The notes beneath the pieces are model-generated. The model ran no database searches and was not told the DNA's origin. It saw nothing but the letters and a program-made list of their open reading frames with translations. A DNA stretch of 29,943 nt from Candidatus Heimdallarchaeota archaeon. GTDB lineage: Archaea > Asgardarchaeota > Heimdallarchaeia > Heimdallarchaeales > Heimdallarchaeaceae. Positions 10,895 to 20,898 of this stretch are shown here, one piece after another (positions within the stretch are counted from its first letter, which is position 1; the number at the start of each line of letters is the position of its first letter). The stretch is taken from assembly GCA_030668825.1 (NCBI GenBank), contig DAOVET010000030.1:1-29943 (forward strand). Direction: 5' to 3'. The position numbers and the translations under genes were made by a program.

Positions 10895-12598
10895 CTATCC
10901 GAAGAATAGAGCTAGAATATGAATAATGAACCCAGTGAAAATTCCTATGTTAATAAGACCTACTAGAACATAGGTTGATATTGTTAGTATTTTAAATCCT
11001 TTTTCTTCAACTCTAACTGCTATAAATAGATATACTATTGGTAATATAACAAGCGCTACTACAAATGTTGCTTGTAACACTAATGTTACTAAATGAATCA
11101 ATTCAAATCCGAATCCATAAAAGGCTCCAAAAAGTGCTACCACAGTCATAACACAAAGTACTACCTCAAATAATAAAATAAAGAATAACCCATTGAAGTA
11201 CATCCTAATATTGTCCATTGTTCTATCTTCTTTGACATTTTGAACTATTTTGTAAATAATGTGAATAGACAACGGTATTACAATCAATGCTATGACCCAA
11301 GTAAAGCTTAAGACAATTTGGAGACTTGTAGTAGTAAACACTCCGTTTGTTATAATCCCATTTAAGATAAATTGAACAACAATAAAAATCAGAGTGGGTA
11401 ACATGATAAATCTTAAAGTTGAGGATAACAAATCTTTAGTTCTTATTTCAGGTGGTTCAATTGATTCGTCCCTATCAGGTGCTGCTATAACGTTTATTTC
11501 ATCTCTCTCATATTTAATCATTGAATACTGATAAGCTATTATAGCTGCCCCAGCTAATAGAATTCCATCATGTGGAAACATGTTCCATGGAAGTATAAAT
11601 GCAAATGCAAAGAAAGTGACAAAAATTGAAATCCACATACTGTTAACGATATGCTTGTTGGGTTTTTTATCGATATTTTTCTCGCGTTTTTCTTTTCCTG
11701 TAATAGTTCTTCCCATCTTATTAAAAAACAATTGAATATGATATTTCATTTGACTAAAAATGTTCTTTTCATCAATGAATCCAGATCTTCTGTCAAAATC
11801 TGCGAGTCTAGCTTTTTGAATATCTCTTTTTTCTCTTTTTGTCTTCCTTGATGTGTAGAACACAGCCACCAATAAAAAGGTGAAAGCAAAGGGATAAATC
11901 AACCCATAGGAAACTTGTAGAGTATTATAGTGAAATCTTGAATCACTGATAACACTGAAGAATCCCAGAATAACTTCCAGACCCCAGAAAAATAGTGCTG
12001 GTACAAAAACCAACATCATCAATCTTCCTCCAAGCCTGGGAGAGTAATCAGGTTTTTTTGATGTCCAGAAGGATACACTCAATAATAGCAAAAACAGAGT
12101 AATTACATAGATTACTTGTTGTCCGATTATGTATCCATAGTTATCTTTTGAACTAAACAGAAATAGACCGAAAAATGTTGCAATAAATACAAGTAGTTTT
12201 AGAATAGAATAAACTGTAGTTCTGGTTAATAAAACTCTTTCTTCCTTAGTATTTGTTTTTGCATCTTTATAACCTACCTCTGCTAGTTTCTTATCAGAAT
12301 CATTTTTTGCTGTATAAATTTCAGATGTAACGCGTGAAAAAAGTAGAAGGCACATTGCGATAATAAGAATTCTAAAGCCAAAAATTACCATTTGATACGT
12401 TATAGTAACGCTGTCTTTCAGAGGATTAGAGAGAAGTATTACAGTAGGAAGACCGAAAATAAGTGTTGTTGCAAAAAGAACCTTAAACACACTTTTCATG
12501 CTTGAAGATTTATTTAAAGAGGCTCCCAAAGCATCATATCTTTGTCTTTGTAAAATAAGGCTATCTTTAATTGAATCTGGATTTGACATTATGAACAA
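10895..12598 (-). CDS. Hypothetical polytopic membrane protein
   Basis: A 567 aa ORF with about 12-13 hydrophobic segments and a central basic cytoplasmic loop. No motif recognised. Confidence 0.7.
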   Translation of the reverse strand: MFIMSNPDSIKDSLILQRQRYDALGASLNKSSSMKSVFKVLFATTLIFGLPTVILLSNPLKDSVTITYQMVIFGFRILIIAMCLLLFSRVTSEIYTAKNDSDKKLAEVGYKDAKTNTKEERVLLTRTTVYSILKLLVFIATFFGLFLFSSKDNYGYIIGQQVIYVITLFLLLLSVSFWTSKKPDYSPRLGGRLMMLVFVPALFFWGLEVILGFFSVISDSRFHYNTLQVSYGLIYPFAFTFLLVAVFYTSRKTKREKRDIQKARLADFDRRSGFIDEKNIFSQMKYHIQLFFNKMGRTITGKEKREKNIDKKPNKHIVNSMWISIFVTFFAFAFILPWNMFPHDGILLAGAAIIAYQYSMIKYERDEINVIAAPDRDESIEPPEIRTKDLLSSTLRFIMLPTLIFIVVQFILNGIITNGVFTTTSLQIVLSFTWVIALIVIPLSIHIIYKIVQNVKEDRTMDNIRMYFNGLFFILLFEVVLCVMTVVALFGAFYGFGFELIHLVTLVLQATFVVALVILPIVYLFIAVRVEEKGFKILTISTYVLVGLINIGIFTGFIIHILALFFG

Positions 12599-12650
12599 TC
12601 ACTTCATAGTTTAGGTGTTTATAATATTTTCTCTGCCGAGTTAATATTTG

Positions 12651-13090
12651 TTACTCTATACTTAAATAAGCTAAAATCTCCTCAATTGATTGTTCTAGTA
12701 CTGAAACAGCTATTTCAAGCACTTTTTGGCCCTTTTCTAAAGAAATACCTTCTAATGATCCAGCAATTCATGAAGAAGAGAATTGATCTGTTCTAGAAGG
12801 TAAATATAATGCCTCTATTTCTCTTCCCCATTTAGATGATGATGTAAGATTTTCAAATCTGTCCTTATGCGCTAGTTCTAGTTTTGCAGCAAGTATTACT
12901 GAAGTTTCTACAGCATCAGCATGCTCACAAGATTGTTCCTCAAATACAGAAGTAACAAGAGTAGGGTGCTTCCACCATTCAAAGAGCATACATGTCATTT
13001 TAGATTACCATTACAATATGAAATTGCATTTAATATTGAAGACTTGTTCCCCCCGTATCCATTTACGGTTGTGGCTTGTTTGATAGCCTT
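12651..13090 (-). pseudogene. Degraded creatininase-family (creatinine amidohydrolase/ArfB/MftE-like) gene remnant
   Basis: The minus strand reads VNGYGGN (family NGHGGN), then a frameshift near 12998, then EWW...EHADAVETS (family HAG..ETS). An in-frame TGA at 12768-12770 sits where a Gly is expected, followed by IAGSLEGISLEKGQKVLE to TAA at 12651. The 5' third of the gene is missing. Confidence 0.8.
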
Positions 13091-13182
13091 AAAACATTAG
13101 GAACAATCGAAATAGGATTTTGTTTTTAGATAGAAAAGCTTAAAATTCAATTTGTTAGAAACAAAATGTAACAGATAACCTC

Positions 13183-13320
13183 GACCAGGTAGTCAAGCTT
13201 GGATGAGTAACACTGCGAGTGAACTCAGAGAAATATGATACATCCTTGGGGACTTGAAAGGATGTTTCCCTCAAGCTATCATGGATGTGATCGGGGGTTC
13301 AAATCCCCTCCTGGTCACCA
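13183..13320 (+). tRNA. tRNA-Pro(GGG) with two BHB introns (13203-13233 in the D-loop, about 19/20; 13252-13281 at 37/38) and encoded CCA
   Basis: Acceptor stem GACCAGG/CCTGGTC, A73, CCA. D stem GTCA/TGAT. Anticodon stem CATCC/GGATG with spliced loop TT-GGG-G-T. T arm GGGGG-TTCAAAT-CCCCT. Removing 31+30 nt gives a 77-nt cloverleaf. Confidence 0.88.
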
Positions 13321-14682
13321 TTATATTTTCTTCCTTTTGGTTCTACGATTTACTGTATATACTAGAAAAATTGTTGCCAGTATGCTCCATATAAGTCCAG
13401 CAAATGAAGAATGTGTAGGTTCTTCAACATATTCACGCAGATTTTCAATCGGTGCCCACTCTTGACTCGAAAATATAATTAAACCATATAGACATGATTC
13501 TATGGTTATTTCCTTATCTGTCAAATTCTCATAAAACCCATCTCCAAAGATGTAATTCAATGCAGTTGCATTTACCACTTCTGAGCCAACATTTTCTAGG
13601 TTCATTAAATACGAAATTAGTGAGAAATATGCTTGATTCTTTAGAATAAGAAGATCATCAGTTCTATCTGTTTCATGTACTAGCCATACTTCGTCTATAA
13701 AATTTGAAATCACCCTTTGATGTATATAATAACTGCTATAATAGAAGTAGTAGTGATCATATCTAAGTTTTTCAGCTCTTGAAAGTCCAATTGCTAGATA
13801 CATTAAATCCAAAGCGCTAGCAGTTTGTGATACCTCACTTGAAGTTAAATTATATTCAGAATAAATTTCATTTGTTGATGCATTTACTAGGTGGATATTA
13901 ATGGAACTTAGAATGGGTTGTATGTAATCAGAAGCACACATACCATAACAATAATTTTGTTGAAAAAGAAGTTGACAAGTTGTTAATAACCATAAACCTA
14001 ATGCTTGATCTAATAGATAACTGCTGTTACTATAGGGTTGGATGAACATATCGAGTGGTTCAAAATAAAACTGGTTGATTAAAGATGAAAAGGCTTCATT
14101 AATTAAATTAGAACTAAAGGTGCTATTAGTATCTTTAAGAGCATAATATGCTTGAATTAATGCATAAATACCAATTATTTGAGATGTTAGGTTTAGATTT
14201 TCTAGTAGATTTTCAATTTCTCGAAATGCTCCGTTTTTAAGTATTTCAAGAATTATAGAAATTTTACCAAGGACCTCATTAGTACTAGGTAAGTATCCTG
14301 CTTGAAGAAGTAAAGAATTTGTTAAAGAGGAAAGAATGATTAATTCAGAAGATGTATTAGATGCGGTTTTTTCATAAACTGGATATCCATTCTGATCAGT
14401 AAAATTTGCATCAATCAGATTTACAGTTACTTCTACTGATTCAAAGTTAGGAGGAGTAATGATAGAAGACCTGCCAGGGAGCATAAGAGGGATGAAAGGT
14501 GATACTATTACAAGAATAGAAATTACTGTGAAAAGGAATTTGTGTTCTACTATTAAGAACCGAAGTTTTCTTCTCGGTTTTTTACCTTTTTTTAAACGTT
14601 CTATGTTCTTTTTCGAATCTAGAAGATAATCACGAACTTTTTCCATTTCTCCTTCTGTCTTTGTTTCTTTGCGATTAGTCAT
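13321..14682 (-). CDS. Hypothetical membrane protein with large extracellular helical domain (possible degenerate alpha/alpha-toroid)
   Basis: Basic cytoplasmic N-terminus, a TM, a domain with many N-x-S/T sequons, then a C-terminal TM and RRTKRKKI. The stop codon directly abuts the tRNA CCA. Confidence 0.72.
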   Translation of the reverse strand: MTNRKETKTEGEMEKVRDYLLDSKKNIERLKKGKKPRRKLRFLIVEHKFLFTVISILVIVSPFIPLMLPGRSSIITPPNFESVEVTVNLIDANFTDQNGYPVYEKTASNTSSELIILSSLTNSLLLQAGYLPSTNEVLGKISIILEILKNGAFREIENLLENLNLTSQIIGIYALIQAYYALKDTNSTFSSNLINEAFSSLINQFYFEPLDMFIQPYSNSSYLLDQALGLWLLTTCQLLFQQNYCYGMCASDYIQPILSSINIHLVNASTNEIYSEYNLTSSEVSQTASALDLMYLAIGLSRAEKLRYDHYYFYYSSYYIHQRVISNFIDEVWLVHETDRTDDLLILKNQAYFSLISYLMNLENVGSEVVNATALNYIFGDGFYENLTDKEITIESCLYGLIIFSSQEWAPIENLREYVEEPTHSSFAGLIWSILATIFLVYTVNRRTKRKKI

Positions 14683-14690
14683 TTTAATCC

Positions 14691-15449
14691 TTATATTAGT
14701 TTCATTATCTCTTTTATTGATTTCATAAATTCCTCAGGTACTTCTTCCTCAAATGCGTATATCTTCTCACTCAAGATGTTGAAATATGGAATTTCCAGCA
14801 CAGCCGAGAATTTCTCTTTACCTATTCTCTTAAGCTCTGATAAGTTTTTCTCGAAATCTTCTTTATCAGCTTCAATTCCCTCTTCATCAATTTTGTTTAT
14901 TAATAAAATCATTCTAGTATCTTCTTCTAACATAGCATAAATATTGTCCGTTAACTCTTTCAGTCCAAGAACATTTGATGTGCTTGGAGTTGCTATGACA
15001 ATTATTACATCTGAAACCATCATTGAATCAATAGATCTGTAAAAAAATCCAGGAATTGTATCAATCAGCAGATAATCATATTTTTCTGAGATTGTATGTT
15101 GCAACTGATATAATTTTGTAAGATATTTAGAATCATCTCTAGAGAGCTTATCTCTCTGTTTTGAGTGTTGTTTGAGAAACTCCATTGAGGAGAAAATCAA
15201 ATCAAGCTTTACTCCATTATCTGCAGTACATGGAAAAATAATTTTAGAAAGTGAAGCACCTTCGAGTAGATAATCAGATAAAAATAAAGGGTTTTCTACT
15301 TTAAAGTATGATTGAAATGATGGAGCCCTAAGGTCATAATCTAATGCCAAAGCTTTTCTTCCTTCCTTAGCTAAAGACCCTGCTATATTTAACAAGAGAG
15401 TGGTTTTTCCTGTACCACCTTTGTAACTATGTACACTTATTGTTTTCAT
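14691..15449 (-). CDS. MinD/ParA-family ATPase
   Basis: Deviant Walker A KGGTGKTT, LDYDLRAPS, Walker B DYLLIDTIPG and INK. Confidence 0.92.
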   Translation of the reverse strand: MKTISVHSYKGGTGKTTLLLNIAGSLAKEGRKALALDYDLRAPSFQSYFKVENPLFLSDYLLEGASLSKIIFPCTADNGVKLDLIFSSMEFLKQHSKQRDKLSRDDSKYLTKLYQLQHTISEKYDYLLIDTIPGFFYRSIDSMMVSDVIIVIATPSTSNVLGLKELTDNIYAMLEEDTRMILLINKIDEEGIEADKEDFEKNLSELKRIGKEKFSAVLEIPYFNILSEKIYAFEEEVPEEFMKSIKEIMKLI

Positions 15450-15845
15450 TTATTTTATCTCCTTTATGAAATATCTCACTTCTGTACCACGACTTTCAGG
15501 ATTATCTTTACTTGGTTTATCAATAGCACTTCTCTCTCTATCTAGGAACCCTTCTTTGTGCAGAGCTACTAAATATCTAGACTCAAGATTGAATGCTCTC
15601 CCTGTAACAGCTGCTACTTCTTTACAAGTAGCTTTTCCTAGTTTTTGTACTGTAAAATAGGTTTTAATATGAGATTTATTTATTCTGATTTCAGGATCAT
15701 AAGCAGATTTTGAAAGTATATCTAATGCAGATATACCAGTTTTTACTGCTGTTTCTTCTATGTTTAGTTTACCCTCTATATTCTTCAGTCTTTTACTTAT
15801 TTCTTCAAGTAAGCTAATCATTTTTTTGAAGTGTTTTTCTGACAT
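15450..15845 (-). CDS. Coiled-coil plus winged helix-turn-helix DNA-binding protein
   Basis: N-terminal coiled coil (ISLLEEISKRLKNIEGKL), HTH ATCKEVAAVTGRAFNLESRYLVALHKEGFLDRER and a wing ending VRYF. The start was moved to ATG 15845 because a TATA box overlaps the longer ORF start. The stop abuts the MinD ATG. Confidence 0.8.
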   Translation of the reverse strand: MSEKHFKKMISLLEEISKRLKNIEGKLNIEETAVKTGISALDILSKSAYDPEIRINKSHIKTYFTVQKLGKATCKEVAAVTGRAFNLESRYLVALHKEGFLDRERSAIDKPSKDNPESRGTEVRYFIKEIK

Positions 15846-15868
15846 CAAGATTACAGTAATATAAAACA

Positions 15869-15876
15869 TATATAAA
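15869..15876 (-). promoter_or_regulatory. Archaeal TATA box for the wHTH-MinD-membrane protein operon (probably a leaderless transcript)
   Basis: TTTATATA on the minus strand, about 23 nt upstream of ATG 15845. Confidence 0.5.
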
Positions 15877-15936
15877 TATATCGGAATTTTGATACCTTTA
15901 TCGAAGAGCAGTTACAAAGGGCAAGAACAGCCGAGA

Positions 15937-15952
15937 GAGAAAGACTTATTAA
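15937..15952 (+). promoter_or_regulatory. BRE/TATA-like promoter for the vWA-RING operon
   Basis: Purine-rich GAGAAAGA followed by CTTATTAA, about 30 nt upstream of ATG 15982. Confidence 0.4.
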
Positions 15953-15981
15953 TATCTCGCAATAATGATATGTTGATACAC

Positions 15982-18051
15982 ATGAAAAGAAAAGGAATAA
16001 TTTTTTGCACGATTGTGCTGGTAGGTTTATTCACACCTATCATGCATGTAATTAGTAAAACTGAGAGTTTTTCACCAGTTATAAATCAGTTAAGTCTTGA
16101 AACAACAGGTCCTTTAGATAATGTCTCAATTGAGATGATAACAGACTTACCTTCCTACCGTTCGGATAACATTCCAAGTACTCTACCTGGAGATTCTTTT
16201 AGTGTTTGTTTTAATGTGACAAATAATTCGGACCAAAATCTTAATCTTCTGGAATTTTATACACAAACAAACGACTTTGGGACAATACAGAATCCGTCTG
16301 ATTCTACTAAAGATTATCTTGAAATAGGAGAATCATGGATAACTAACGAACATTCAATCCTAACTGAACCCACTGCAGGAGTTTCTTCTGATCTAGATTT
16401 GGTCATCGTTCTTGATCAGTCTGGTTCTATGGGTGATGAAATTGAAACTTTAACTAGCGAATTAATCAGAGTTATTGATGAAATTGATTTAGAAGTCCCT
16501 GATCTCCGAGTAGGTTTAGTCCTCTTTGGGGGTAATCCAGATTATAACCCCTATCTTGAAGAAAGCTTGATTTTCCCCCTTACTTTCGATGTTGTAGATA
16601 TTGTTAATGTATTAGATCAAACTGCAGCTAATGGTGGTACAGAACCGTGGGGTGATGCACTATATGCTACTAAGGTGAATCTTGATTGGCGTACTGATGC
16701 AGTTAAATTGGTAGTGTTAATTACTGATGAAGAAAATAATGGTGGAACTGTCATTAAATCAGCTTCTCAACTAAACGATATCTATCAACAATATGCAGTT
16801 GAAGGGTTCATACTGTGTACCATTGCAGCTACTGGTTCGAATACTCAGGTTTTTGACCAGCTACGTTCTGGAGCTGAAATAACAGGAGGAACTTATATTG
16901 AAATTGGTTCAGAATATCCTCAGACAATAGACATTCCAGATATCATTGGAGAATTAATAGTACTCTATGCAGTTGAATTGGATTTCAGAATAACCGTTCA
17001 ATTATCACACATGAATGATCAAGATGAAAGAAGTAGCATCGAAAAAACATTTGTTGTTTTATTAGACGATTTACCTCCGGAAATTGATACTTGGGTCTAC
17101 TTTAGTGAAGATTTTCTAACTGATGAAAGGCAAGTAAATATTATGAGTGAAATAAAAGATGTTACAGGAGTTTCATTTGTTGAGATTTACTATAAATTCG
17201 ACAGAGCTATGTTTTGGACTATTGCTAATGCCACATCATTATTCAACGACTCATACTGTCTATCTTTACTATTTACTGATCAAACAGAGTTTTTGTCTTA
17301 TCAAATCTATACTGAGGATTGGTTAGGAAATGAAATTTATTGTGAGATACAAGAAATAGATCTAGCTGACATCTATAAATATTCAACCATACCTTTTGAT
17401 AAGAAAAAAGAGATAATACTACAACCAAATCAGAGAGTTGTTTATCGCTTAACTAGCCATCCTATAACTGATTCCTATGGCATAATAATCGGTGATGATT
17501 ATGATACTTATGACATCTTTGCAATAGATACAACAGATTCTTCTATCAGATTAGATAAACTAGATTCAAACTATGATACTTTTGTAATCCCAGCTGATCA
17601 TACTATAAAGATCTCTTTGGTTTCTTCTGAAATCGTGAAAGTACTTATAGCAAACGCTATACCACAGAGACTTGAATTAGGAGACACAACAAGTGTTATT
17701 ATTGGAACTGAAGACGCTTATCTGTTTGAGATAGATAATAGAATAGAATCTACAGAATATCGCAAATTTTATGCTGATTCGTATGTGGTTCAAACAGGTA
17801 TCTATGTTTTCAATGCAAGTAATATGGACTACCTATACAAACGAAGTAGTGAAGTTTACCTTACAGAAGATGAATTCTTACTGTTGGTTGTTGCAGATTA
17901 TCATGTTGGAGAGATTGACATAGGTTTTGTTGGTGAGTATATGTACGACACACATGACCATTATTACGCCAAATCTTCATCTTGGTCAATCTTTGTGACT
18001 ATACTTGGATTAACAGCTTTACTTGGATTCTTAAAACGTAAGAAACGGTGA
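15982..18051 (+). CDS. Surface-anchored vWA (MIDAS) domain protein with Ig-like domains
   Basis: Signal peptide MKRKGIIFCTIVLVGLF (likely start 15982; the ORF track extends to 15889). MIDAS DLVIVLDQSGSMG, GGTEPWG and VLITDE. C-terminal TM plus KRKKR. Confidence 0.88.
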   Translation: MKRKGIIFCTIVLVGLFTPIMHVISKTESFSPVINQLSLETTGPLDNVSIEMITDLPSYRSDNIPSTLPGDSFSVCFNVTNNSDQNLNLLEFYTQTNDFGTIQNPSDSTKDYLEIGESWITNEHSILTEPTAGVSSDLDLVIVLDQSGSMGDEIETLTSELIRVIDEIDLEVPDLRVGLVLFGGNPDYNPYLEESLIFPLTFDVVDIVNVLDQTAANGGTEPWGDALYATKVNLDWRTDAVKLVVLITDEENNGGTVIKSASQLNDIYQQYAVEGFILCTIAATGSNTQVFDQLRSGAEITGGTYIEIGSEYPQTIDIPDIIGELIVLYAVELDFRITVQLSHMNDQDERSSIEKTFVVLLDDLPPEIDTWVYFSEDFLTDERQVNIMSEIKDVTGVSFVEIYYKFDRAMFWTIANATSLFNDSYCLSLLFTDQTEFLSYQIYTEDWLGNEIYCEIQEIDLADIYKYSTIPFDKKKEIILQPNQRVVYRLTSHPITDSYGIIIGDDYDTYDIFAIDTTDSSIRLDKLDSNYDTFVIPADHTIKISLVSSEIVKVLIANAIPQRLELGDTTSVIIGTEDAYLFEIDNRIESTEYRKFYADSYVVQTGIYVFNASNMDYLYKRSSEVYLTEDEFLLLVVADYHVGEIDIGFVGEYMYDTHDHYYAKSSSWSIFVTILGLTALLGFLKRKKR

Positions 18052-18055
18052 TCAA

Positions 18056-19336
18056 ATGAGCAAATCAAAAACTCTCATTCTTTTTTTTATTACTCTTTCA
18101 TTAACTATGACATTACTAAATCATACAAATGGATTGTATGCCACTGATGACATAACAACAAAAGCTGTAGATAAAAGTTATAGTCTTAAAGTTAGTTCTT
18201 CCTATAACAACAGTGAGTATTTCATTCTTATCGAAGGAGCAGTATTCGAATTTAGTATTTCTGTTCAGGAATGGGGAAGTATTATACAAGGCCCCTACAA
18301 CGGTCTAATGATACAATTAGTCTTAGACCAGAGTGAAACCATTTACGATAGTTGGCTAATCAATCATGGTGATACAGGAATACATCATTTTACAACTGGA
18401 GTGGAAATTTACGAGATTATTAGAGTTAGAGTAAGTTCTCTTTATGTTGAAGAATGTTTATTTAATTTCACTGTATCAGATGTTTATCCTATCTGGGCAT
18501 ATTCCTTGAATCTTAATTTAGAACCTCAATTTTTCTTTGGAGTAGAGAGATTTGCAGAATATTACTATAGAATTGACAAATTAGTTACTATATTAGACAG
18601 CAAATACCTTGAAACAGCTAATTACACACTAAATCTTCTTAATAGAAATCAGACGACAATCAAATCAGAAACTGATAATTTCGCAATAAGTGACGTATCA
18701 GAGTTAAATTTAGAGATAGCTGAAGGGGTATTTGAAGGGGATTGGTATGAAATAATCTTTAATTTTAATGATTATAATGCTGAGAATGATATTCTAATTA
18801 GTTTGTTTTATGATCATATTCAAACTGAAAATATCGCAAGGTTATTTATTAATACAGGAGAAAAAAATCTTGATGAGATTCCCATTGATAAAAAATATTC
18901 AGATTTAGCTTTTCAGTGGAAAATCATAAATGATTCTATCGATACTAATACAACACGATTTATCATAGGTAATCCAATTTACGTATTATGCTCAATTTTA
19001 TATCTTGCTGGTGTTTTCATTGCTTTCAAATTCTTCCAGCGGAGAAAAAAGAACAAAGCAATAGATTACAATTTGAATAAGAATAAGGTTGAATATTCAC
19101 CTAAGCTTGTTTATGATGTTGATTTCCAGAAAAAAGACATTAACTATAATCTAGTTACAAGAGAAGCCATCACTGTAACCTGTTCCATATGTTTACAAAC
19201 TATTTCAAAGAAAAATACAATCATACGATGTCCTTCTTGTGATATAGCGTTTCATAAAAATCACCTATATCAATGGTTAGTTGGAAATGGAACTTGCCCA
19301 GCTTGCAATGCAAGACTAAAGATTCAAAAAGAATAA
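18056..19336 (+). CDS. Single-pass transmembrane protein with C-terminal RING finger (putative E3 ubiquitin ligase)
   Basis: Signal peptide, ectodomain of about 280 aa, TM (IYVLCSILYLAGVFIAFKFF) plus QRRKKNK, then C-x2-C-x12-C-x2-C-x4-H-x2-H-x3-W-x6-C-P-x-C at 19181-19306. Confidence 0.85.
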   Translation: MSKSKTLILFFITLSLTMTLLNHTNGLYATDDITTKAVDKSYSLKVSSSYNNSEYFILIEGAVFEFSISVQEWGSIIQGPYNGLMIQLVLDQSETIYDSWLINHGDTGIHHFTTGVEIYEIIRVRVSSLYVEECLFNFTVSDVYPIWAYSLNLNLEPQFFFGVERFAEYYYRIDKLVTILDSKYLETANYTLNLLNRNQTTIKSETDNFAISDVSELNLEIAEGVFEGDWYEIIFNFNDYNAENDILISLFYDHIQTENIARLFINTGEKNLDEIPIDKKYSDLAFQWKIINDSIDTNTTRFIIGNPIYVLCSILYLAGVFIAFKFFQRRKKNKAIDYNLNKNKVEYSPKLVYDVDFQKKDINYNLVTREAITVTCSICLQTISKKNTIIRCPSCDIAFHKNHLYQWLVGNGTCPACNARLKIQKE

Positions 19337-19458
19337 GTCCTATTCTGCCTATCTTTATCTAAACAAATTTTTTTTCCTATTCTTCTAGTGACATGTCCCA
19401 ATGTTAGTTTTTTTAAATGCATTCGAAAGTAACAAGTCAAAAGGAGTCTATTCTAAAA

Positions 19459-19692
19459 ATGACACAAGCAGCTTATATTCTTCTAAACGTCCAATCGGGC
19501 ATGTTAGAAAAAGTTCAAGAAGGTCTTAAACACATTGCAGAAGTTACAGAAGTATATGCAGTGTACGGTATCTATGATTTAATTGTAAAGATTGAATTCG
19601 GTACAATGGATGAATTAAAAAATCAAGTATTAAACCACAGTATAATTCTAGAAGGAGTAAAGAATTCAATGACAATGATTTGTGTCAATTAA
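19459..19692 (+). CDS. Stand-alone Lrp/AsnC ligand-binding (RAM) domain protein
   Basis: Motifs AYILLNV...EVTEVYAVYGIYDLIVKI...GVKNSMTMI with no HTH. AGGAG RBS upstream of ATG 19459 (the ORF track starts at 19417). Confidence 0.85.
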   Translation: MTQAAYILLNVQSGMLEKVQEGLKHIAEVTEVYAVYGIYDLIVKIEFGTMDELKNQVLNHSIILEGVKNSMTMICVN

Positions 19693-19695
19693 TCT

Positions 19696-20898
19696 CTAAT
19701 CCTTCGAATCTCTTGGTTTTGATAGTATATTCTCAATTCTCTCTACAAGAACAGTTGCAGGAATATCAAAAGTTGTTATTTTGGCTCGTCTTCCTCGTTT
19801 ACCCTCTTCAATTGGTCCTACGCTTTTACCAATAACACCCACTTTATCTAAGGTTTCTATAGCAGATCTAAAAGTCGATTTTCCTCTTGAATCTTCTTCA
19901 TATTCTTCACAGGCTAAAAGATAGCTTTCATAGCCTTCATCTACTGTTGTTGATGTAACACCTTTTAGCGAAAGTTTTTTCGCTACACCTAAAGCAGTTA
20001 ATAATTCATGATCTCTAAGTTCAGATAAAACATCTCTTCTTAGTTCTGGATAAACATCAGCTTTTGCAGCTCTGATATAATCCGGAACAATAAAGTTCTC
20101 TTGTTTTAAATCAGTCAATTTTCCAGATCTATAAAGAATTTCGAGACCATGTCTTGCATTCTGAGAAGAAGAACAAATATCTGCAATAAAATTCAATGTT
20201 TCATCAGAGTAAGAAGTTGGATAGAGTGCCATGCTAGCTCTATATTCAAGAATTTCCAGCAATTGATCCCTTGAATAACCAGGAACATCTAATTGATCAT
20301 GAATATGTCCAGACAGAGGTACATTTAGAAGAGATTTCCATTCAGTAGGTCTGGAAATTATTATTGTTGAAATCATGCTTTGCTCTGAACCGAAGTACTC
20401 ACCAGCATGGAAGATACTAAGGATGTCTTCAGAATTCAACATATTAGCTTCATCAAGAGCAATTATTAATCGAATATCTTCTTTTGTTAATCTTTTTACT
20501 AGCATATCTAGAATCTCTTCATCGCTAAAACCTCGAGATTGAATGTGGAAGTGTTCTGATAAGACATTACGTAAAATAGCTGTTTTACTTCTGAAAGAAT
20601 GACAATTATAATATAAGAATTTTACATTTATGTGTCTTGAATTTGCTGTACTTTCAAACCTTTTCATAGTATATTTACACAAATTAGTTTTTCCAATTCC
20701 AGCATTTCCCACTATTGCAACATTAACTGAAAATGAGCCTTCTCGTCCTAGAAGTGATCGGAAATTTCTTGCTAGTCTCTTGATCTCCTCTTCTCTTCTT
20801 GGAAGTTCTGGTGGAACATACTCTGGATAGAGAGTAGATTCATTTTTGAAAATGGATTTCCCAAACATTGCTTCTTCTACAAAATCAAAGCCAGACAT
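19696..20898 (-). CDS. cdc6: Cdc6/Orc1 replication initiation protein
   Basis: IFKNESTLYPEYVPPELPRREEEI, Walker A GNAGIGKT, YYNC, Walker B IIALDE, sensor-2 NAR and a C-terminal winged helix with GKRGR. Confidence 0.95.
   Translation of the reverse strand: MSGFDFVEEAMFGKSIFKNESTLYPEYVPPELPRREEEIKRLARNFRSLLGREGSFSVNVAIVGNAGIGKTNLCKYTMKRFESTANSRHINVKFLYYNCHSFRSKTAILRNVLSEHFHIQSRGFSDEEILDMLVKRLTKEDIRLIIALDEANMLNSEDILSIFHAGEYFGSEQSMISTIIISRPTEWKSLLNVPLSGHIHDQLDVPGYSRDQLLEILEYRASMALYPTSYSDETLNFIADICSSSQNARHGLEILYRSGKLTDLKQENFIVPDYIRAAKADVYPELRRDVLSELRDHELLTALGVAKKLSLKGVTSTTVDEGYESYLLACEEYEEDSRGKSTFRSAIETLDKVGVIGKSVGPIEEGKRGRRAKITTFDIPATVLVERIENILSKPRDSKD

Follow-up and report, generated by a model that had tools for sequence, protein, structure and literature searches.

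A candidate receptor-like RING ubiquitin ligase and its predicted vWA partner at the surface of a Heimdallarchaeaceae archaeon

Introduction

In a stretch of 29,943 nucleotides from Candidatus Heimdallarchaeota archaeon (assembly GCA_030668825.1, contig DAOVET010000030.1; this whole stretch is called the window below), a gene at 18056..19336 on the plus strand encodes a 426-aa RING protein that is, very probably and on the basis of sequence rules, a type-I, surface-exposed single-pass membrane protein with its RING finger in the cytoplasm. The gene lies directly downstream of one for a von Willebrand factor A (vWA) membrane protein with a metal ion-dependent adhesion site (MIDAS), and we lean toward the view that the RING protein is the cytoplasm-facing output subunit of a two-protein surface complex with this partner. 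The reality of the gene, the identity of its domains, their conservation, the operon adjacency, and the ubiquitin toolkit of the genome were computed directly, whereas the binding of the two ectodomains comes from a model only.

Ubiquitin-controlled turnover of surface receptors is regarded as eukaryotic and as tied to endocytosis and ESCRT sorting, and Asgard archaea are known to carry ubiquitin, E1, E2, RING, and ESCRT genes. To our knowledge, the RING ligases studied so far in Asgard archaea are operon-encoded and act on ESCRT components. A first-pass annotation of the window, made from its letters, had read the protein as an archaeal, receptor-like membrane RING of the ubiquitin-ligase type; the in silico evidence presented here supports this overall reading, and none of the contrary in silico findings that the annotation had named was encountered.

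Results

Parts and predicted topology of the RING protein

A single open reading frame (ORF) in the ORF listing coincides precisely with 18056..19336; it starts 4 nt past the stop codon of the vWA gene, whose ORF ends at 18051, and its G+C content is about that of the remainder of the window. At the N-terminus (residues 1-26; 18056..18133), a basic n-region (MSKSK) is followed by a 16-residue hydrophobic run and by a polar stretch to ..HTNG, a pattern that the orthologues keep, and residues 3-24 form a helix in the AlphaFold2 (AF2) model. This signal-like segment would be either a signal peptide or an N-terminal anchor; since both, whether cleaved or kept, give the same outcome, the RING would be cytoplasmic either way. 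Kyte-Doolittle analysis gives one transmembrane (TM) segment at residues 302-328 (18959..19039; peak 2.11), which AF2 models as a helix at 307-333 and which is followed by the stop-transfer sequence QRRKKNK; within 15 residues on each side, five K/R and one D/E come after the segment, versus two K/R and two D/E before it. From these rules of hydrophobicity and flanking charge, together with the AF2 helix, we infer a topology that puts the RING in the cytoplasm and not on the extracellular side. The signal-like segment, ectodomain, lone TM helix, and positive-inside tail of the first-pass annotation were thus all seen.

The AF2 model (25-row alignment; mean predicted local distance difference test score, pLDDT, of 72) comprises the helix 3-24, two all-beta parts at 39-155 and 158-270, a disordered stalk, the helix 307-333, a low-confidence linker, and a folded RING. 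Ectodomain 1 (residues ~36-155; 18161..18520) is modelled as a jelly-roll beta-sandwich (pLDDT about 85-92; VIA-align Z about 10) and ectodomain 2 (residues ~158-270; 18527..18865) as a second all-beta domain (pLDDT about 62-88), so that the fold check run with AF2, Foldseek, and VIA-align describes two all-beta sandwiches. Foldseek against the PDB gave TM-scores of at most 0.22 on the query for the ectodomain, with SIDT ectodomains, BcsB, collagen-binding, and CBM domains among the matches, and a wide VIA-align search with residues 36-147 returned many tied matches at Z 8-10 (PirA, pre-peptidase C-terminal (PPC)/collagen-binding, p24 GOLD, and SIDT); the VIA-align fold search barely covered ectodomain 2 and the RING. 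Because many folds tie at similar scores, ectodomain 1 is best described as a generic jelly-roll binding-module fold without a family. The best ESM Atlas score for residues 27-300 was 0.77, which is under the useful range. Pfam gave no PA domain in the RING protein at E <= 0.1 and, as the PA domain is alpha/beta and the ectodomain model is helix-free, the protein is not a member of the PA-TM-RING family; the absence of PA chains from the fold-search lists was not counted as evidence.

Beyond the membrane, the juxtamembrane region is Lys-rich, and a conserved linker (residues ~343-372; 19082..19171), delimited in the orthologue alignment, predicted to be cytoplasmic, and modelled by AF2 at low confidence, carries invariant Y347, P349, F357, and Y364 (the 'YSP' motif, ..EYSP...Y.V.F....Y.L). 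PADLOC and NCBIfam gave no match to either the RING or the vWA protein, so the pair is not linked to a known defence system. A bacterial promoter/terminator scan found fewer sites than in shuffles, bacterial models being not applicable to archaea. Two runs carry an RNA-Seq label but are 'probably DNA', and the RING gene is absent from their short contigs, so they speak neither for nor against expression.

A RING finger with a C4H2C2 ligand pattern

The RING finger (residues 375-418; 19178..19309) matches Pfam zf-RING_2 (PF13639) at 32.7 bits against a cut-off of 27.3 (E 9.3e-8), and it scores 37 bits with zf-RING_2 in a six-frame search of the genome. Three other identities were rejected, namely PHD (PF00628; 13.2 bits versus a cut-off of 24, E 0.094), Prok-RING_1 (PF14446; 18 bits versus 29.1), and zf-rbx1 (19.3 bits versus 31), and the PHD or other finger raised in advance as a counter-reading thus scores below its cut-off, whereas the RING scores above. 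The ligands are spaced C376-x2-C379-x12-C392-x2-C395-x4-H400-x2-H403-x10-C414-x2-C417, an arrangement compatible, as a sequence, with a cross-brace, and none of the eight (C,C,C,C,H,H,C,C) varies in the 25/25 aligned orthologues; the C-terminal RING of the first-pass annotation is borne out by this invariance and by the Pfam match. AF2 folds the region with a pLDDT of 68-84.

We compared the last 87 residues of the RING protein with all PDB chains. At E <= 0.01, the search matched 22 distinct sequences, every one of them a RING E3 ligase (22/22), the best being Arkadia (1.5e-6); RNF24, RLIM, RNF38, EL5, ZNRF1, the plant RMR-type AT5G66160, RNF165/ARK2C, listerin, and ZNRF3 are also among the matches. 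In these alignments, H400 falls on ligand 5 of RING-H2 fingers and H403 on ligand 6, while in the Arkadia alignment ligand 3 is matched by C395 and the place of His4 is taken by an Ile, which is not a ligand; the fourth ligand therefore comes from C392, three residues upstream, in a CPxC knuckle (CPSC). By its ligands, the finger reads as C4H2C2, closest to RING-H2 in sequence, yet neither RING-H2 nor RING-CH. RING-H2 (C3H2C3) requires His at ligands 4 and 5 and Cys at ligand 6 and was rejected, since ligand 4 is Cys here and both ligand 5 and ligand 6 are His; RING-CH/RINGv (C4HC3), which is defined by Cys at ligand 6 and a longer C4-to-H5 spacing, was rejected because ligand 6 is His403 and the spacing is x4. 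The annotated His at the sixth ligand is thus correct; the annotation placed the finger between RING-H2 and RING-v, and by ligands it belongs to neither class, standing nearest to RING-H2 in sequence. The CPxC...HxxH arrangement is shared with further RING proteins, both in this genome and in other families of the class, so C4H2C2 is a variant typical of the lineage.

Conservation extends to the hydrophobic E2-binding residues I378, W407, and P415 and to a basic linchpin. Residue 378 is I in 24/25 orthologues and V in 1/25, the adjacent ligand-following L380 is L in 20/25 and M in 5/25, and W407 and P415 are each found in 25/25; the E2-contact residues listed earlier (the Ile of CSIC, the next Leu, Trp, and the Pro of CPxC) are accordingly all present. 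The linchpin position after the last Cys (418) is K in 22/25, R in 2/25, and N in 1/25, so the Asn that had been pointed out does occur in this copy, to which it is private, but it is not a family trait. It is unlikely to be an assembly error, because the identical protein is seen on 6 contigs. Lys stands at this residue (window 19307-19309) in the two nearest cluster representatives, which are 86% and 84% identical, and human RNF24 also aligns an Asn after its last Cys. Judged from its sequence, the RING is probably an active E3 ligase.

The upstream vWA protein and its predicted complex with the RING protein

The vWA partner gene (15982..18051, plus strand) encodes 689 aa from its likely start, M32; the longest ORF runs from 15889, and the start at 15982 is preferred because orthologues begin at the internal MKRKG. 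In order, the protein consists of a signal peptide, an N-terminal beta domain, the vWA domain, and beta-sandwich domains, and it closes with a TM helix and a basic tail of 5 residues. Its match to the Pfam VWA profile (44.2 bits) is above the cut-off of 23.8, and the MIDAS motif DxSxS (D176, S178, and S180) and T279-D280 are invariant in 27/27 orthologues; the cytoplasmic tail has only 4-10 mostly basic residues. In Foldseek, the AF2 model (pLDDT 80.5) is best matched by integrin headpieces (E 4e-11 to 1e-9), PitA (a pilus adhesin), and ANTXR2. TM-scores reach 0.48 on the target but stay near 0.2 on the query; because the overall scores are low, the likeness resides mainly in the vWA domain. 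Full-length orthologues form 42 clusters, with names solely from the Heimdall group or 'Asgard group archaeon', and the other vWA genes of the genome (contigs C91, C69, C19, and C105; G, C, and L numbers are our handles for genomes, contigs, and loci) are on contigs without RING genes.

We predicted the complex of the vWA ectodomain (57-690) with the RING-protein ectodomain (27-300), each with its own alignment, alongside three controls. The pair scored 0.67 (runs of 0.58, 0.67, and 0.72) versus 0.00 for the best control, and the runs shared >= 73% of contacts, with a partner pLDDT of >= 66. In the benchmark, the mark is reached by 58/80 solved complexes and by 2/110 mismatched pairs, rates that are only approximate here since own alignments were used. 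The predicted interface is formed by residues 430-447 and 474-484 of the vWA protein and by residues 85-87 and 98-115 of the RING protein; on the vWA side, it lies in the sandwich domain after the vWA domain, so that the MIDAS face would stay free in the model. On the RING side, the interface (17 positions) contains the invariant S99, W100, D106, and H110, and its conservation is 0.73 versus 0.51 for the other 257 ectodomain positions, a value reached by 3/20000 random sets. The model supports a complex of the two proteins through their ectodomains, which we hold to be reasonably likely. The probable sensor would then be this pair and not the RING protein by itself, the vWA protein having been no part of the first-pass reading.

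Distribution, linkage, and loss of the pair

A word-indexed search gave 30 homologue clusters of the RING protein, full length and 33-86% identical, with a precomputed PF13639 match on 30/30; source names, available on 6/30, are Heimdallarchaeota (including AB_125), Heimdallarchaeaceae, or 'Asgard group'. NCBI names some homologues 'E3 ubiquitin protein ligase' or 'RING finger domain-containing protein', and the RING itself is thus already known to automatic annotation. HMMER over 1.84 billion representatives returned 277 matches at E <= 1e-3 and 11 at E <= 1e-30; fewer than twenty are full length, and the remainder cover the RING or TM-RING part only. In the 83 genomes of the class that were compared, every full-length match comes from the family to which the window belongs (20 genomes of its own genus, its own included, plus G004, G005, G006, and G007), with matches elsewhere being to the RING only. 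Averaged over 25 orthologues, identity to the RING protein falls from 0.70 in the RING to 0.38 in the ectodomain and 0.25 in the TM region. The C-terminal RING proteins of ~435 aa in other families were rejected as distant orthologues, because, of the seven retrieved, 6/7 consist of an N-terminal anchor and a helical cytoplasmic region and 1/7 has no TM segment. Among these seven proteins (L049-L055; 341-440 aa), the six with an N-terminal TM anchor and a long helical cytoplasmic region have the same CPxC...HxxH RING and are conserved in >=2 other families, and the one with no predicted TM segment (L052) has 341 aa.

Within the genus, the vWA gene precedes the RING gene in 20/20 loci (its own included), and the order vWA, RING, AsnC-type gene, and Orc1 on the opposite strand is found in 19/20, the twentieth stopping after the RING gene. 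In other genera, vWA stands beside RING in 3/4 loci (G006, G005, and G004, the G004 contig being partial) and not in G007; the two genes are adjacent wherever both are assembled, and the contig of G020 terminates within the RING gene. Across the family of 31 genomes, 23 have both genes, 6 have neither (G009, G011, G027, G029, G002, and G003; completeness 72-95%), and 2 have a RING remnant only. Such co-occurrence is weak functional evidence, because the genomes are related and so not independent, and because neighbouring genes go missing together, whether through loss or through gaps in assembly. Both proteins evolve fast: where Orc1 is ~83% identical, the RING protein is 33-36% and the vWA protein 41-50% identical. 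The absences are in part genuine, and the pair is accessory and dispensable: it is restricted to a single archaeal family, diverges quickly, and is found deleted or decayed in certain close relatives.

Several observations concern the surroundings of the pair. Downstream (window 19417-20898), a stand-alone 91-aa protein with the Lrp/AsnC ligand-binding domain is encoded next to the opposite-strand Orc1/Cdc6, and these AsnC-type and Orc1/Cdc6 genes are 67-98% identical across the family, while the neighbouring pair varies. Upstream, Pfam, NCBIfam, and PADLOC found nothing for two large minus-strand ORFs, at 10895-12598 (567 aa) and at 13321-14682 (453 aa). G009 (C115; L058) lacks ~6.5 kb corresponding to window 12600-19336, which holds the 453-aa ORF, a ParA/MinD-like ATPase, a 139-aa ORF, the vWA gene, and most of the RING gene, and a 185-aa ORF occupies the site. 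The ParA gene and the 139-aa ORF accompany the vWA-RING pair in two other genera (L039 and L041), and the five genes may form one accessory module. At the position that the vWA gene has in the sister genome G006, G007 carries a 314-aa transposase-like ORF and an HD-domain-like ORF (L040 8934-9878; identified by eye).

The ubiquitin toolkit of the genome

The genome (2.76 Mb in 138 contigs, 90.6% complete, Heimdallarchaeaceae-like; the window is its contig C18) encodes the proteins that a RING ligase would work with, and the search suggested for ubiquitin, E1, E2, and ESCRT found ubiquitin with GG, E1s, E2s with HxN...Cys, UEVs, a JAB peptidase, and ESCRT-III. There are four UQ_con matches, of which the E2-like ORFs on C133 and C96 have HxN and then Cys (catalytic type), while those on C138 and C2 have no Cys and are UEV-like; two ubiquitin matches; four ThiF matches, two of them beside ubiquitin genes; and two Snf7 (ESCRT-III) genes, which adjoin the ubiquitin cluster on C2. 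This cluster (G000:C2:11800-19200) comprises the two Snf7 genes, a 455-aa, long-tailed UEV-like protein, which lacks a catalytic Cys and is likely of the UEV-Vps23 type, an E1 of the ThiF type, and a ubiquitin of 78 aa with ..KGGL at its end. A second cluster (G000:C96:30000-35600; L057) is a complete one-strand ubiquitin operon with an E2 (176 aa), a JAB/MPN peptidase (239 aa), a membrane protein that is polytopic and matches RING weakly (22.8 bits), two small ORFs, a Ub-like protein that has an acidic N-terminal extension and ends in ..STAG, and an E1 (416 aa).

The genome has 12 zf-RING_2 matches, three of them in tandem on C42, and because 8/12 of the ORFs have a predicted TM segment, membrane attachment seems to be the rule for RING fingers here. 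A large ectodomain is found only in the 426-aa RING protein and in a 907-aa protein on C4. The latter (G000:C4:8267-10990; L056 4267-6990, minus) is itself receptor-like: its signal-like start is followed by ~560 residues that Pfam does not match and by several TM segments, and its C-terminus carries a RING with the canonical C-x-H...H-x2-H pattern. It has relatives of ~1000-1030 aa across the genus, and it is encoded beside a Cas12f/TnpB-like ORF and an Eco57I-type methylase.

Discussion

Comparison with known systems

In architecture, the RING protein resembles the eukaryotic PA-TM-RING ligases (RNF43/ZNRF3, RNF13, RNF128/GRAIL, and plant RMR), with a signal peptide, an ectodomain, one TM helix, and a cytoplasmic finger of the RING-H2 lineage, and its RING matches those of ZNRF3 (E 3.1e-3) and the RMR-type AT5G66160 (E 7.1e-4). 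The likeness to RNF43/ZNRF3/RNF13-type ligases drawn by the first-pass annotation thus holds for the architecture but not for the family: the protein has no PA domain, its ectodomain is modelled as two all-beta, jelly-roll-type sandwiches, its ligands are C4H2C2 and not C3H2C3, and its host is an archaeon without a known endocytic pathway. The ZNRF3 ectodomain is engaged by co-receptors, and here, too, a second surface protein is predicted to engage the ectodomain. RNF24 and the plant ATL/EL5 proteins, which are membrane-anchored through an N-terminal anchor and have no real ectodomain, are also close in their RING (RNF24, 2.1e-5; EL5, 2.8e-4), and RNF24 shares the Asn after the last Cys; ORFs of this class are present in the same genome on C135, C62, and C102.

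Closer to home, Hennell James et al. 2017 reportedly described a Caldiarchaeum (Aigarchaeal) ubiquitin cascade with an operon-encoded RING E3. For Asgard archaea, a preprint on a Helarchaeial operon reports that its E1/E2/RING cascade, with eukaryote-like Ub, E1, and E2 in an archaeal host, works in vitro (bioRxiv 10.1101/2023.07.25.550441), and the RINGs described there are encoded in ubiquitin/ESCRT clusters and handled as soluble proteins. The protein described here differs from those operon RINGs by its gene position outside such clusters, its 270-residue ectodomain, and its pairing with a vWA protein.

Two further likenesses concern the pair. Hrd1 and Hrd3 also pair a membrane RING subunit with a single-pass partner that has a large exoplasmic/luminal domain, as predicted here; Hrd1, however, is polytopic and essential to a housekeeping pathway, whereas the present RING protein is single-pass, lineage-restricted, and dispensable. 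The vWA partner shares an extracellular vWA domain with intact DxSxS, beta-sandwiches, and a TM anchor with integrin beta I-domain proteins, ANTXR2 (CMG2), and pilus-tip vWA adhesins; it differs by its short tail and low TM-scores, and no alpha-subunit-like propeller to go with it was found.

A full-text literature search, with most subscription journals outside its coverage, found no description of an Asgard receptor-like ectodomain RING ligase or of a vWA-RING surface pair; it took in the available parts of 10.1101/2023.07.25.550441, PMC11188069, PMC13734099, PMC7159879, PMC11354881, and PMC13328587. What is new here is the conserved vWA pairing with predicted binding, the narrow and unstable distribution, and the exact ligand variant.

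A proposed surface complex and its alternatives

In the scheme that we favour, the RING protein would be inserted as a type-I protein, with its two beta-sandwiches outside, one TM helix, and its RING-H2-lineage finger in the cytoplasm. Its ectodomain 1 would hold a beta-sandwich domain of the presumably co-transcribed vWA/MIDAS membrane protein, which would offer a MIDAS ligand-binding domain and, like integrin/ANTXR-type adhesion receptors, expose it outside while having almost no cytoplasmic tail of its own. The RING would bring a ubiquitin-charged E2 of the genome to the membrane, and ubiquitin could be transferred to the Lys-rich juxtamembrane segment of the RING protein itself, to the tail of the partner, or to nearby membrane proteins; the UEV-Vps23-like protein and ESCRT-III might, as pure conjecture, read the mark. 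We infer E2 recruitment, ligase activity, substrates, and the coupling of ligand to activity in this scheme, and a receptor with a ligase output is suggested because the vWA subunit has the MIDAS only, while the RING subunit has the effector and an ectodomain predicted to hold the vWA protein. Fast evolution and repeated loss fit an interaction with the environment (adhesion, partner cells, or viruses) better than housekeeping quality control.

Various points weigh against this scheme. The pair has been deleted in G009, whose Orc1 is 98% identical and in which just the last 26 RING codons remain; AsnC-Orc1 is present without the pair in G011, G002, and G003; the RING gene of G005 is broken by two stop codons; and the RING copy of G007 is truncated and has lost its signal peptide, with the vWA gene gone. 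Moreover, a lysine in the vWA-protein tail is not invariant, the complex score is the predictor's own confidence, and conserved columns feed the predictor, so that the conservation test is not independent of the complex prediction. Further such points bear on the alternatives. Gene order within one archaeal family is partly inherited, the AsnC and Orc1 genes being syntenic too, and an active membrane RING ligase might act alone, with the vWA protein a mere operon neighbour and a separate surface adhesin; the vWA-side interface is likewise no more conserved than its surroundings (0.66 versus 0.61, p 0.22), and the tool's own figures include a pass in the complex test for 7/44 neighbours picked blind. 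We nevertheless hold a lone ligase to be unlikely, since all three controls scored 0.00 where the pair reached 0.67, the invariant residues of a fast-evolving ectodomain fall at the predicted interface, the vWA and RING genes share a narrow phyletic range and are lost together, and the vWA protein itself lacks a cytoplasmic domain.

About as improbable, or slightly more so, is a non-catalytic zinc finger, with the protein serving as a membrane adaptor that docks the cytoskeleton, ESCRT, or a signalling partner. The atypical C4H2C2 pattern, in which ligands 3 and 4 form a CPxC knuckle and not the C-x-H of RING-H2, the Asn in place of Lys/Arg at the linchpin of this copy, and the location of the gene (C18) outside both ubiquitin clusters (C2 and C96) would suit such an adaptor and speak against a ligase; on the other side, I378, W407, and P415 are invariant or nearly so, the linchpin is K/R in 24/25, the nearest solved sequences are all active-type RING E3s, RNF24 having the same aligned Asn, and the genome supplies E1, E2, and Ub. 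The archaeal membrane is the topological equivalent of the endoplasmic reticulum (ER), and quality control in the manner of Hrd1-Hrd3 in ER-associated degradation, in which the outer domains would detect misfolded or unassembled secreted proteins and the RING would mark them for extraction by Cdc48 and the proteasome, has in its favour that the finger is of the RING-H2 lineage, as in Hrd1, and that, in the predicted complex, the RING subunit has a partner whose exoplasmic part is large. Archaea possess Cdc48 and 20S proteasomes, according to PMC13328587. We regard this alternative as less probable still, since a housekeeping role is ill-suited to a one-family distribution, to divergence as fast as 33-36% identity where Orc1 keeps about 83%, and to repeated loss or decay in close relatives, and since a single-pass protein gives no retrotranslocation channel. 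A chance origin of the ORF or of its motif, or an artefact of annotation, is refuted by conservation, with full-length orthologues at 33-86% identity in 25+ clusters, invariant ligands, 11 clusters at E <= 1e-30 among 1.84 billion proteins, and the Pfam match above its cut-off, and is left with a negligible chance.

A bolder extension of the proposed complex, which we offer as a speculation with rather long odds against it, is a prokaryotic adhesion receptor with a ligase subunit, in which ligand capture at the MIDAS would alter the activity of the RING. The ubiquitinated complex or its neighbours would then be read by UEV/ESCRT-III and leave the cell in outward buds, a process that has the same topology as the sorting of cargo into multivesicular bodies. 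If this extension were true, ubiquitin-dependent down-regulation of surface receptors in Heimdall-group archaea would predate endomembranes.

The narrow distribution and dispensability of the pair limit its significance. Within these bounds, the RING protein is a concrete candidate, open to cloning, for what might connect the surface of a near relative of eukaryotes with its ubiquitin system, and a type-I ectodomain-TM-RING design would have arisen here with an ectodomain other than that of the eukaryotic PA-TM-RING proteins. If the proposed complex is real, ubiquitin tagging would be under the control of cell-surface events in a prokaryote.

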